From a virus (taxonomy: Duplodnaviria; Caudoviricetes): 48,342 nt of DNA. Shown here piece by piece: positions 10,733 to 27,590 of this stretch (position 1 is its first letter; every line of letters starts with the position of its first letter). A program made the position numbers and the translations under genes. The notes beneath the pieces are model-generated. The model worked only from the letters and a program-made list of their open reading frames with translations, was not told the DNA's origin and did no database searches. The DNA lies in the IMG/VR virus record IMGVR_UViG_3300037784_000042, positions 1-48,342 of that record; one strand, given 5' to 3'.

Positions 10733-11518
10733 TTAAAATAATTTTTGTTGTATATTATCATAATTTGTTGGCATATTACTCCAAATTGCTTCGGTAGTCT
10801 TATACATAGAACCTTGCATTTCTTTCATTGGCTTAAAATCTAACCAATCGGCTTTTGTATTTTCACATACAATGGTTTGACCTAACCTGTTTTTACACCA
10901 ACCCGAAAGAAATTTAAAGTCAATATCTTTAGTGCTTTTAACATACCATTCACCACCAAATTGATATGGTGGGTCAACATACCAAGTGGCTTTTTGGTTT
11001 TCTATATTTTCATAGCTTCCAAGTTTTATATCCCAATGTCTTATTTTAAATAAATTATCTGCAATTCGCTTTTTTGCGTCACCCCAAGTATTGTAGTCTT
11101 TTGCTGTTTTTTTAGGTTGAGCTGAACCACCATTTATACAAAAACCAATAAGCCATTTTTCTTCGGTGCTTAAATAAAAATCATCTACTGTATCGCCTGT
11201 TTTTAGGTTAGGCAATTCCATTATATCTTTTACACTTGCTTGCTTTAAGTATTTCCATAAATCTACAATTACAGGGTACTTGTCAACTAATAATATATCT
11301 CTTTCAAACCATTTCAAAGAATATCTGGCAGAACCAGCAAAAGGTTCTATTATCTTATCAAATTTTGGTGGGGGATATAAGTCAACCACTTTGCTTTTAC
11401 TTCCGTAATATGACCACATATATACGTTTTTTGAATTTTCGTTATTGTTATCGTTTTCGTCCTGTTCGCATTTGCAGGTGTCGTTGTTCAACCAACAGTC
11501 ACATATTCTATCTTTCAT
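10733..11518 (-). CDS. DNA adenine methyltransferase (D12/Dam-like)
   Basis: YYGSK, EPFAGSA (SAM binding) and YVDPPY (catalytic); the true start may be 11419. Confidence 0.85.
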   Translation of the reverse strand: MKDRICDCWLNNDTCKCEQDENDNNNENSKNVYMWSYYGSKSKVVDLYPPPKFDKIIEPFAGSARYSLKWFERDILLVDKYPVIVDLWKYLKQASVKDIMELPNLKTGDTVDDFYLSTEEKWLIGFCINGGSAQPKKTAKDYNTWGDAKKRIADNLFKIRHWDIKLGSYENIENQKATWYVDPPYQFGGEWYVKSTKDIDFKFLSGWCKNRLGQTIVCENTKADWLDFKPMKEMQGSMYKTTEAIWSNMPTNYDNIQQKLF

Positions 11519-11662: not shown

Positions 11663-12493
11663 TCAATTAATTTCAATTAATTTCATTCCATAATTATTTA
11701 CTCCTTTTTTAATATTTAAACCATCTACTTTTTTTAATTTATTTTTTTTAAATGGTTTATAATTTACTTGATGATGCCATCTATTAAATTTCCAAACCAC
11801 TTTAACTACGTCAGGATGTTGTTTTTTAAGACTTTCTGCAAATTCACGTCTATTGTCTGTTTTATTATAAATGGAATCAGTATTACCTCCTTTCATTCTC
11901 ATTGTAGTAACTTTTCCAATAAGAAAAGCATTAAAAAGTATTGTGCAGTAACCCATTTTTAAAACTCTTAAACATAAATCCGTATCTTCATTATACAAAC
12001 CTCTCCATCTTAAATTCAAATTATTATCTATAAGTATGCAGGAATAAATCCTAGTATTTAAAGTGAACGGTTTAATAGTGTCGGTTGTTTTACAAAATGA
12101 ATAATAGTTCATTCCACTAATTGGAACATTTTCAAATCTTTCTGTAAAATCCTCACAACACCTAAAAATTGTTCCATCTAATACTTTTGGTTTCATGTTT
12201 CTATTTAACCTATGAAAACCTTCAATATTATCATCTAAAACCCAATGTCTTTTATGTCCAAGATTTAATGAATGTTCCCAAACAAAATTTCTAACAGGTA
12301 CAGACCCCTTACCTAAATTACTAAATGGTGTTATTAATATTTTAGCATCGGGCCATTCTCTTTTATAGTCTTTATATTCCTGTGGTTCTACTACAATAAA
12401 AAAAGGAACATTCATTAGTGTAAGTTCTCTAGCCGTTAAACAATTTTTAGACCTAGATTTGCTTATTACATAAACAGGATATTTAGGGTTCAT
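11663..12493 (-). CDS. TET-associated/GREB1-like GT-A glycosyltransferase (TAGT), putative DNA base glycosylase-transferase
   Basis: YPVYVISKSR, WVLDDN, TRIYSCILI, WRGLYNEDTDL and MKGGNT motifs. Confidence 0.75.
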   Translation of the reverse strand: MNPKYPVYVISKSRSKNCLTARELTLMNVPFFIVVEPQEYKDYKREWPDAKILITPFSNLGKGSVPVRNFVWEHSLNLGHKRHWVLDDNIEGFHRLNRNMKPKVLDGTIFRCCEDFTERFENVPISGMNYYSFCKTTDTIKPFTLNTRIYSCILIDNNLNLRWRGLYNEDTDLCLRVLKMGYCTILFNAFLIGKVTTMRMKGGNTDSIYNKTDNRREFAESLKKQHPDVVKVVWKFNRWHHQVNYKPFKKNKLKKVDGLNIKKGVNNYGMKLIEIN

Positions 12494-25774: not shown

Positions 25775-26023
25775 ATGAAATTAAAAATCTATTTCAGTAA
25801 GAGTTCTCATTTGCCATGTGTTGAATATGGGGATAGTGTTTTAAAGGCAGAAGATTTAGAGGTGAATGTTCCTGTCATTGGCCAATGGTTCCCAAATGAA
25901 TCACCTTCATGGGCTTTGGTAGGTGAAGCTGATGAAATCATATTGAACAACGGTAAAATCACCATAGGAAACAACAAAGAATACGTTTCAGAAGGAGAAA
26001 TTATGAAGTCATTGGACAATTGA
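25775..26023 (+). CDS. Hypothetical protein
   Basis: Operon ORF ending just before the tRNA promoter. Confidence 0.55.
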   Translation: MKLKIYFSKSSHLPCVEYGDSVLKAEDLEVNVPVIGQWFPNESPSWALVGEADEIILNNGKITIGNNKEYVSEGEIMKSLDN

Positions 26024-26024
26024 T

Positions 26025-26032
26025 TATATTTG
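26025..26032 (+). promoter_or_regulatory. Bacteroidota -7 box (TATATTTG) for the leader/tRNA unit
   Basis: TAnnTTTG ends 4 nt before the leader ATG. Confidence 0.65.
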
Positions 26033-26036
26033 CAAC

Positions 26037-26120
26037 ATGAAAACGTTTAACACATACTTTTCTTATTGGTCGAGTTGTAATTTTTACAACATCGTGAGGG
26101 GAATTGTATGCGTTATCTAA
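26037..26120 (+). CDS. Putative attenuator leader peptide MKTFNTYFSYWSSCNFYNIVRGIVCVI
   Basis: 14 of codons 4-18 encode F, N, Y, S, W or C, matching the downstream tRNAs; lies between the promoter and the terminator. Confidence 0.75.
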   Translation: MKTFNTYFSYWSSCNFYNIVRGIVCVI

Positions 26121-26142
26121 ATAGATATATTTAATGATATAT

Positions 26143-26171
26143 AAACCCTCTAGGAAACTAGGGGGTTTTTT
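26143..26171 (+). terminator. Intrinsic terminator (attenuator) ahead of the tRNA array
   Basis: AAACCCTCTAG-GAAA-CTAGGGGGTTT followed by a T-run. Confidence 0.8.
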
Positions 26172-26174
26172 ATT

Positions 26175-26260
26175 GGGTGTGAGTTCACTATTGGTTTGTG
26201 GAGGCGGTCTGTAAAACCGTAGCCCGTTTGTCGGTACTGGTTCGATTCCAGTTACACCCA
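26175..26260 (+). tRNA. tRNA-Tyr (GTA)
   Basis: Acceptor GGGTGTG/TACACCC, anticodon loop CTGTAAA, long variable arm, GGTTCGATTCC T-arm. Confidence 0.85.
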
Positions 26261-26265
26261 CAAAA

Positions 26266-26347
26266 GGAAGGTAGCGCTAAGGTGGTAAACTAGATTTGAA
26301 ATCTAGGCTATCGTTTTTCGATAGAGGTTCGATTCCTCTACCTTCCT
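26266..26347 (+). tRNA. tRNA-Ser (TGA)
   Basis: GGAAGGT/ACCTTCC acceptor, CTAGA-TTTGAAA-TCTAG anticodon arm, long variable arm. Confidence 0.85.
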
Positions 26348-26352
26348 CAAAT

Positions 26353-26436
26353 AGAGAATAAAATTGTCAGGTGACAATAACCGTTTGCTAAACGAGTTGA
26401 GGTGAAAGCCTTGGGTTTCGACTACCCTATTCTCTT
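26353..26436 (+). tRNA. tRNA-Ser (GCT), non-canonical
   Basis: AGAGAAT/ATTCTCT acceptor, loop TTGCTAA, variable arm, GGGT-TTCGACT-ACCC T-arm; mismatched anticodon stem. Confidence 0.7.
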
Positions 26437-26442
26437 CAACAT

Positions 26443-26515
26443 GGCTTTGTAGCTAATTTAGTAAAGCAACTGCCTGTTAAGCAGAAGAATGTGGGTTCAA
26501 ATCCCACCAAAGCCT
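26443..26515 (+). tRNA. tRNA-Asn (GTT)
   Basis: GGCTTTG/CAAAGCC acceptor, CTGC-CTGTTAA-GCAG anticodon arm. Confidence 0.9.
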
Positions 26516-26520
26516 CAAAT

Positions 26521-26589
26521 ATGCCCCGTCTTGGCAAGCACCAGTGGTCTCCAAAACCACAGGGAAGGGTTCGATTCCTTTGGGGTGTG
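26521..26589 (+). tRNA. tRNA-Trp (CCA) with a short D-arm
   Basis: GTGGT-CTCCAAA-ACCAC anticodon arm, AAGGGTTCGATTCCTTT T-arm, acceptor with two G-U pairs. Confidence 0.75.
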
Positions 26590-26593
26590 CTAT

Positions 26594-26666
26594 GGAAAAG
26601 TAGCAATGATGGTTCATTCGGTAGACTGAAAATCTAACAATGTTGGTTCGATTCCAACCTTTTCCA
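26594..26666 (+). tRNA. tRNA-Phe (GAA)
   Basis: GGAAAAG/CTTTTCC acceptor, TAGA-CTGAAAA-TCTA anticodon arm. Confidence 0.85.
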
Positions 26667-26671
26667 CAAAT

Positions 26672-26742
26672 GACAAGAATACTGATGGTGAAGTGATTGG
26701 ATTGCAAACCCAATATTTACGGTTCGATTCCGTATCTTGTCT
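26672..26742 (+). tRNA. tRNA-Cys (GCA)
   Basis: GACAAGA/TCTTGTC acceptor, loop TTGCAAA, U73 discriminator. Confidence 0.85.
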
Positions 26743-26818: not shown

Positions 26819-26848
26819 CCCGTCATGCTTAGGTGTGACGGGTTTTTT
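26819..26848 (+). terminator. Intrinsic terminator after the tRNA array
   Basis: CCCGTCATGC-TTAG-GTGTGACGGG followed by T6. Confidence 0.75.
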
Positions 26849-26853
26849 GTTGG

Positions 26854-26884
26854 AAAAAAAATCCCCGCCAATGATGACGGGGAA
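26854..26884 (-). terminator. Intrinsic terminator for the convergent minus-strand block
   Basis: A-tract then TCCCCG...CGGGGA hairpin. Confidence 0.6.
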
Positions 26885-27116: not shown

Positions 27117-27590
27117 TTAAGCATATAAATATCTTTTACCATTTAAAATATCGCTTATTGTAGATTTTGAACATCCCATTTTTTTAGCGATTAAATACCT
27201 CTTCATTCCTTCTTTATCAAGTTTAAAAATCTCGTTTATTTGTGACTTGTTAAATTTTGAATTCCAAAGCAATTCTCCATTTGGTTTTAATCCGTTTTTA
27301 TGTGCATGAATTTGATTCTGTGAATTAGTTACCCATTCTAAATTTTCAACCCTATTATCACCTTTAATTCCGTTTTTATGATTTACTTGATTTTTTCCTT
27401 TTTGTCTTTCAATATAATATTCAGCAACCAATCTATGGATGTATTTTTGTACCTGAACACCTTTAATCGTAAGAGTTACTTTTAAGTAACCGTTTCCATT
27501 ATTTTGAGGCTTTAATTTTCGTTTAGTTTTTTCATTTACAATATCTCCATTTGGATATATTAAATACTTCGTACTTGCGTATCTTTTCAT
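27117..27590 (-). CDS. HNH endonuclease (HNH_3-like) with C-terminal HTH
   Basis: YIHRLVA..QVNHKNGIKGDNRVENLEWVT..NQIH. Confidence 0.85.
   Translation of the reverse strand: MKRYASTKYLIYPNGDIVNEKTKRKLKPQNNGNGYLKVTLTIKGVQVQKYIHRLVAEYYIERQKGKNQVNHKNGIKGDNRVENLEWVTNSQNQIHAHKNGLKPNGELLWNSKFNKSQINEIFKLDKEGMKRYLIAKKMGCSKSTISDILNGKRYLYA

Follow-up and report, generated by a model that had tools for sequence, protein, structure and literature searches.

A candidate ribosome-mediated attenuator ahead of a seven-tRNA array in a phage genome

The tRNA array and its leader

The window, i.e. the whole stretch of DNA analysed here, is an entire virus record of 48,342 bases, in which a family scan identifies, amongst others, the small and large terminase subunits, portal and tape measure proteins, RecT, NinG and an exonuclease, with no match to an integrase family among the 61 window proteins scanned. 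Between terS (22497) and terL (29727) lies a compact unit in which a promoter box, a short open reading frame (ORF) and an intrinsic terminator precede seven tRNA genes, and which is closed by two back-to-back terminators (Table 1). ARAGORN finds five of the tRNAs, Rfam adds tRNA-Cys, and tRNA-Ser(GCU), missed by both programs at default settings, is recovered by its cloverleaf fold and by a profile, which accounts for all seven tRNAs that an earlier sequence-only reading had placed behind the terminator. The anticodon stems of the tRNA-Ser(GCU) (26385-26391) and tRNA-Cys (26702-26708) contain mismatches, possibly reflecting nuclease evasion or decay.

Table 1. Features of the leader/tRNA unit in the window
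Feature	Position	Strand	Basis
Bacteroidota primary-sigma -7 box TATATTTG (TAnnTTTG type), predicted +1 at 26037	26025..26032	+	sequence
Leader ORF, 27 codons, predicted leaderless	26037..26120	+	ORF reading
Sensor block, codons 4-18	26046..26090	+	window statistics
Region 1, predicted pairing with region 2 when ribosome-free (anti-antiterminator)	26048..26064	+	folding
Inner hairpin of the predicted 1:2 structure (core 26074-26090)	26071..26094	+	folding
Region 2 (begins GAGGG), predicted antiterminator strand	26096..26115	+	folding
Region 3, predicted pairing with region 2; CCCTC at its 3' end serves as terminator 5' arm	26132..26150	+	folding
Intrinsic terminator (3:4), followed within a few bases by tRNA-Tyr	26143..26171	+	terminator prediction, fold
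tRNA-Tyr(GUA)	26175..26261	+	ARAGORN, Rfam
tRNA-Ser(UGA)	26266..26348	+	ARAGORN, Rfam
tRNA-Ser(GCU), irregular anticodon stem	26354..26438	+	cloverleaf fold, profile
tRNA-Asn(GUU)	26443..26516	+	ARAGORN, Rfam
tRNA-Trp(CCA)	26521..26590	+	ARAGORN, profile
tRNA-Phe(GAA)	26594..26667	+	ARAGORN, Rfam
tRNA-Cys(GCA)	26672..26742	+	Rfam, fold, profile
Pair of back-to-back terminators at the end of the unit (26819-26848, +; 26883-26855, -)	26819..26883	+/-	

The promoter box and the leader ORF are located where the sequence-only reading had put them. According to the available text of PMC9723704, the -7 box of Flavobacterium occupies positions -12 to -5, which would place the transcription start on the A of the leader's ATG, and the ORF, formerly described as near-leaderless, is therefore predicted to be strictly leaderless. 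As 58 copies of the -7 motif occur in the window, the motif alone is weak evidence; no good -33 box is visible upstream of the leader by inspection of the sequence, and a sigma-70 scan, which addresses the wrong promoter type for Bacteroidota, gives no promoter at 26025. An exact gap of 4 nt between box and ATG is found in 30 of 98 unique units of the survey described below, compared to 0 of 19 ORFs preceding control terminators. Together with the relatives of the unit, the promoter box suggests a Bacteroidota host for this phage.

With respect to the surroundings, an ORF of 82 codons that belongs to no known family (25775-26023) has its stop 13 bases 5' of the leader start, and because there is no terminator between the two, transcripts from upstream may also enter the leader. 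On the other side, an HNH endonuclease gene on the minus strand (27117-27590) converges on the array; HNH genes neighbouring tRNA arrays have been reported before (PMC8421152, available text). Two further minus-strand genes (11663-12493 and 10733-11518) code for a glycosyltransferase-like protein (PHROG 842) and a DNA methyltransferase, respectively, and are possibly involved in DNA modification. A terminase search yielded 17 related phage loci, none of which has a tRNA array within the flanks examined, and a BLAST comparison of the region with named phages returned matches to single tRNAs only and no close relative.

The sensor block of the leader comprises three Phe, three Asn, three Tyr, two Ser-TCN, one Ser-AGT, one Trp, one Cys and one Thr codon, so that, as had been noted from the sequence, 14 of its 15 codons specify Phe, Asn, Tyr, Ser, Trp or Cys, and all seven codon boxes of the array, both Ser boxes included, are matched. 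Amongst the 46,296 stop-free six-frame windows of the genome this is the only one with 14 such codons, and none of 200,000 shuffles of the block's 45 bases reached that number; 13 of 15 are reached by 11 windows, two of them being the leader itself.

Leaders and arrays in related loci

Loci for comparison came from scans of sequence collections with tRNA-pair and terminator-tRNA patterns, and the survey comprised the matches listed (L001-L384), duplicates included, plus the window, with a detector that is blind to codon content. Among the listed loci there are at least 640 tRNA runs, at least 175 of which have a terminator within 25 bases upstream, and in 134 of these 175 a short ORF (14-50 codons, ending 10-55 nt before the terminator) is present, compared to 19 of 88 control terminators. 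The 134 units derive from 125 viral contigs, eight metagenome contigs and the window. As 465 of the 640 runs among the listed loci have no upstream terminator, many arrays function without the attenuator layout; a scan of the genome collection for Trp-then-Phe gave 75 loci and no unit, and in Bernardetia the array lacks an upstream terminator.

For the statistics, 100 units with at least two tRNAs and enough room to the locus end were kept and grouped into 61 clusters at 60% leader identity. Based on first-round tRNA calls, for which the detector took a wrong ORF in L186, missed some tRNAs and accepted ATG starts only, the match between a leader and its own array was 0.432 compared to 0.254 ± 0.016 for shuffled pairs (50 clusters, 0 of 100,000 permutations) and, when leaders were clustered at 35% identity (44 clusters), 0.434 compared to 0.254, bearing in mind that such permutation figures overstate independence because of shared ancestry, tree-free statistics and searches seeded with window-like tRNA pairs. 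The match is highest at codons 6-15 and declines over the last eight codons. Three GTG-start leaders that match their own arrays by eye (L032, L123, L146) lie outside these ATG-only counts. After the tRNA calls had been improved and two clusters exceeding 11 anticodon types set aside, the covered fraction of an array's codon boxes was 0.963 for its own leader compared to 0.593 ± 0.034 in shuffled pairs (59 clusters, coverage being complete in 50), and the match was 0.66 in frame compared to 0.22 and 0.21 in the shifted frames. The co-variation of leader codons with tRNA content that the sequence-only reading had proposed to look for is thus found, and instead of the same codons being kept by different arrays, the codons change with array content.

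This also applies to isoacceptors of a single amino acid. Where the only tRNA-Leu is of the UAG type (11 units), leaders contain 15 CTN versus four TTR codons, and where it is Leu-UAA/CAA (four units), 11 TTR versus one CTN; likewise, there are 15 CGN versus two AGR codons with only Arg-ACG (18 units), and four AGR versus no CGN codons with only Arg-UCU/CCU (four units). In arrays with both Ser tRNAs, TCN occurs in 19 of 20 leaders and AGY in all 20; Ile codon boxes follow the isoacceptor weakly. Amongst 18 Tyr/Ser/Ser arrays, Asn codons are present in 9/9 leaders with a tRNA-Asn versus 0/9 without, Leu codons in 7/7 versus 2/11 and Trp codons in 13/13 versus 1/5. In 21 Pro/Gln/His arrays Glu codons are tracked (6/6 versus 1/15), there is no significant tracking for Arg (p 0.33) or Asn (p 0.49) in this type, and some detected leaders match their arrays poorly (L237, L320, L310, L214). 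The identical seven-tRNA order of the window is headed by eight leader clusters, all of which cover the seven boxes.

Amongst named phages, Cellulophaga phage phi38:1 (KC821614.1) carries three units with a separate leader and terminator for each, and in one of them the window's seven tRNAs recur in identical order, preceded by a leader of 29 codons in which the same six amino acids appear reordered. Leaders matching their arrays were also found, outside the fixed test set, in Maribacter phage Panino (two units), in Tenacibaculum phage Gundel_1 (one unit or more) and ahead of the chromosomal arrays described below. L186 is identical to a stretch of phi38:1 (3090/3090 bases), and in four of eight RNA runs for this locus one assembled contig spans leader, terminator and tRNAs; strand, ends and level are unreadable in these contigs, which may derive from DNA, and their common start falls at a promoter sequence that is repeated in that genome. 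In phi38:1 a minus-strand hypothetical gene is annotated over one of the leaders, and leaders of tRNA arrays are mostly overlooked in annotation.

Near-complete tRNA sets occur in L018, L043, L134 and L379, where they are arranged in three blocks, each with its own leader, that are split approximately by the first codon base (A/G; U plus Ser-AGY; C plus Glu). In L381, the region about 120-250 bases past tRNA-Cys contains a second promoter box and, behind it, a hairpin with a U tract that precede a protein gene; this is possibly another regulated leader.

Predicted switching and competing explanations

For the window RNA, mutually exclusive 1:2, 2:3 and 3:4 helices are predicted. The terminator (3:4) is indeed strong, as had been supposed, with a stem of 11 bp (26143-26168) followed by a U tract and z = -4.7 for 26120-26175. 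In the predicted ribosome-free fold, 26048-26064 pairs with 26099-26115 around the inner hairpin, possibly a pause hairpin, and the terminator is left free; once the 5' part is masked, the predicted partner of 26096-26115 becomes 26132-26150, so that the terminator's C-rich arm is captured. Both pairings proposed in the sequence-only reading, i.e. GAGGG (26096-26100) with CCCTC (26146-26150) and the hairpin formed by GTTGTAA and TTACAAC, recur in these predicted folds, but the five-base match alone is at chance level, since complements of this type reach 4-6 bases with other terminators. The modelled support for the pairing is the longer 2:3 helix together with the 1:2 helix, the latter having been overlooked in that reading.

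In line with such pairing, the ORF tail and its own terminator arm pair at -10.3 compared to -6.6 ± 0.23 kcal/mol in shuffled pairs (81 clusters), an effect not seen for the 5' part of the ORF used as a control in these clusters, and 1:2 pairing amounts to -10.4 compared to -7.6 ± 0.3 after shuffling (69 clusters). The own tail ranks first for its own terminator in only 16 of 81 clusters, the window having rank 7. The longest perfect complement was also tried as a measure of covariation, the own pair being best or tied in seven of ten cases and not in the window, and was rejected as too weak alone.

In a switch model with a ribosome footprint of 12 nt (9 or 15 nt shift the drop by one codon either way), the predicted capture of the terminator core is 0.22 with no ribosome, 0.80-0.96 with a ribosome stalled at codons 2-17, 0.31 at codon 18 and no more than 0.18 at later codons, falling to 0.00 at the stop; modelled antitermination hence ends at codons 18-19, where the cognate block ends. 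A ribosome reaching the stop would cover region 2, whereupon the terminator would form; one stalled at codons 2-17 would leave region 2 free to capture the terminator 5' arm; and in the absence of a ribosome region 1 would hide region 2, keeping the array off. Since the leader is written in the array's own codons, the ribosome is predicted to stall, and the array to be induced, whenever any of these tRNAs is in short supply, and the newly made tRNAs may in turn relieve the stall and close a feedback loop. At full-length equilibrium the terminator is favoured even with region 2 free (-20.7 versus -15.5 kcal/mol), and the model therefore requires co-transcriptional kinetic trapping and tight coupling; such trapping is accepted for the trp attenuator. 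Across the survey a strict three-state pattern is predicted for only 14 of 61 clusters, and stalling raised the modelled capture in 45 of 61.

At the level of sequence and predicted structure, the unit displays every feature of a classical attenuator that can be assessed in this way. It is probably a ribosome-mediated transcription attenuator sensing the supply of cognate tRNA, and comparison strongly supports this interpretation, first put forward from the window's sequence, by the co-varying and frame-specific codons and by the co-variation of leader tail and terminator.

An attenuator of the same architecture could instead sense amino-acid starvation, i.e. uncharged tRNA, like the trp, his and ilv leaders; stalling at an uncharged tRNA would trigger it mechanically, and Flavobacterium amino-acid operons have been reported to possess leader-peptide attenuators (PMC9723704, available text). 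However, the leader codons track the isoacceptor and not the amino acid alone, an added tRNA would supply no amino acid, and the chromosomal copies described below adjoin RtcB and an RF-1-domain gene and not biosynthesis genes, making starvation an unlikely signal. It might also be argued that the tRNAs are subject to fixed, leaky transcription, as many units are predicted to antiterminate even when ribosome-free (mean capture across clusters 0.54), or that the leader responds to any slowing of the ribosome with no tRNA-specific switch in vivo, as the PA5471.1 leader is induced by ribosome-targeting antibiotics (PMC13041342) and a cyanobacterial trn array by general translational stress (PMC8421152), in each case according to the available text. 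The array-by-array changes of the leaders, which extend to the codon box and are confined to the reading frame, would then be unneeded, and both versions are accordingly regarded as improbable.

A functional small peptide might be suspected from the aromatic- and Cys-rich leader product, and translation-free, T-box-like binding of tRNA from the fact that codons are by definition complementary to anticodons. However, identity to the window peptide is only 16-36% in nine related leaders, and the residue order is scrambled even between relatives with the same array, which points to the codons and not to the peptide; Rfam gives no match besides tRNA, and thus no riboswitch family, in the window at gathering score; and start, stop and frame are kept across units with a stop-to-terminator spacing of mostly 17-30 nt. 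Either mechanism is therefore considered very unlikely. The AT-richness of codons for F, N, Y, S, W and C, the windows with 13 of 15 and the irregular anticodon stems might suggest that the block arose by chance in AT-rich DNA or that the unit of this phage is a dead remnant. Either is hardly credible in view of the shuffling result, the intactness of all parts and the modelled switch boundary, which falls where the codon block ends. The unit is a real, non-random feature.

For the tRNA-sensing attenuator, the usual trigger may be cleavage of host tRNAs by defence nucleases or, with about even probability, general tRNA decay or overload during infection. The counter-defence role against host anticodon nucleases proposed in the sequence-only reading is plausible.

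Chromosomal copies and known systems

Long tRNA arrays were also found in five of 401 genomes of the family of G006, a genome that holds a Flavobacterium-titled locus (L405 in G544, L406 in G430, L407 in G545, L408 in G749 and L409 in G476). A terminator and the start of a leader, about 42 codons in length, lie upstream of all five chromosomal arrays, as established by script for three and by reading the sequence for two. The leader of L405 covers 16 of 16 codon boxes of the main array and is without Ala, Gly and Val, that of L406 misses one of 16 boxes and that of L407 three of 19. RtcB lies just upstream of the array in L405, L406, L408 and L409 and is followed in the one chromosomal locus scanned by an RF-1-domain gene, which we take to be PrfH; an SPFH gene is located downstream of the array in all four loci scanned, and no phage family was found among the 30 ORFs scanned flanking the chromosomal arrays. 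The RtcB context would favour tRNA damage over amino-acid shortage as the signal, and the location of chromosomal copies beside RtcB implies that the attenuator circuit is not solely a phage counter-defence device.

In a sample of the phylum, 11 of 401 genomes matched; five of the matches are without any tRNA, one is without a tRNA at the match, L387 is without a tRNA call, and two are housekeeping Tyr-Gly-Thr clusters. The other two matches, L395 and L396 (G237 and G365), each have a lone chromosomal tRNA-Tyr next to an OsmC gene, preceded by a Tyr-Tyr leader and a strong terminator.

It is conceivable, at slightly less than even probability, that Bacteroidota phages and some hosts (next to RtcB) use a codon-programmable tRNA homeostat, in which spare tRNAs would be split into leader-listed blocks and the ribosome would act as a multiplexed detector of immune cleavage, inducing only the block with the tRNA that was destroyed. 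In that case one could read from the leaders which tRNAs come under attack.

The mechanisms of differential tRNA gene regulation have been called largely unknown (PMC8421152, available text). Why and when phages use the tRNAs they carry is a long-standing question, and the layout makes for a simple test, as each leader predicts which tRNA loss induces which block and the cultured pair of Cellulophaga phage phi38:1, with its three units, and its host is available. If true, tRNA genes would be under feedback control by their own decoding load, and one would have an in vivo anticodon-nuclease sensor that can be reprogrammed.

Leader-peptide attenuators are well established for amino-acid operons, examples being trpL, hisL and pheL as well as the multivalent thrL and ilvL. 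The window unit shares with them the short control-codon leader, the 1:2, 2:3 and 3:4 helices, the intrinsic terminator and, by prediction, stall-dependent read-through, but it is phage-borne, its output consists of tRNA genes and not of enzymes, and its leader samples six amino acids and seven codon boxes, mirroring the downstream isoacceptors. T-box riboswitches likewise choose between terminator and antiterminator in response to tRNA, but bind one uncharged tRNA directly and have no ORF.

According to the available text of PMC13041342, the PA5471.1 leader of Pseudomonas aeruginosa armZ acts by stalled-ribosome attenuation and, like the device predicted here, senses a tRNA defect, in this case a missing CCA-adding enzyme, via codons 3 and 4; unlike the window unit it controls a protein anti-repressor and has neither a tRNA array nor a codon mirror. 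The trn L-array of Anabaena is a silent spare-tRNA array with RtcB and HNH neighbours that is induced by impaired translation, but its control is at initiation, by the repressor TrcR on promoter repeats, and is not codon-specific (PMC8421152 and PMC10272220, available texts); neither 'attenuat' nor 'leader' occurs in the available text of PMC8421152. In anti-defence systems of the T5 type, phage tRNAs substitute for cleaved host tRNAs and the expression level is important, a T5-like tRNA-Tyr countering retron-Eco7 PtuAB (PMC11555353) and T5 tRNAs countering PARIS AriB (PMC12409363, both as available); expression is, in contrast to the control proposed here, ascribed to a strong promoter in the available text of PMC11555353, in which 'attenuat' and 'leader' are likewise absent.

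Control of phage tRNAs is not discussed in the available parts of PMC5335546, two supplements of which hold no relevant rows, and a literature search, mostly outside subscription papers, found no leader-peptide attenuator before tRNA genes, in agreement with the earlier remark that attenuation of phage tRNA arrays appeared to be undescribed. What is likely new here is therefore the use of tRNA genes as the output of an attenuator and a leader that mirrors its array down to the isoacceptor, the attenuator class itself being classical.
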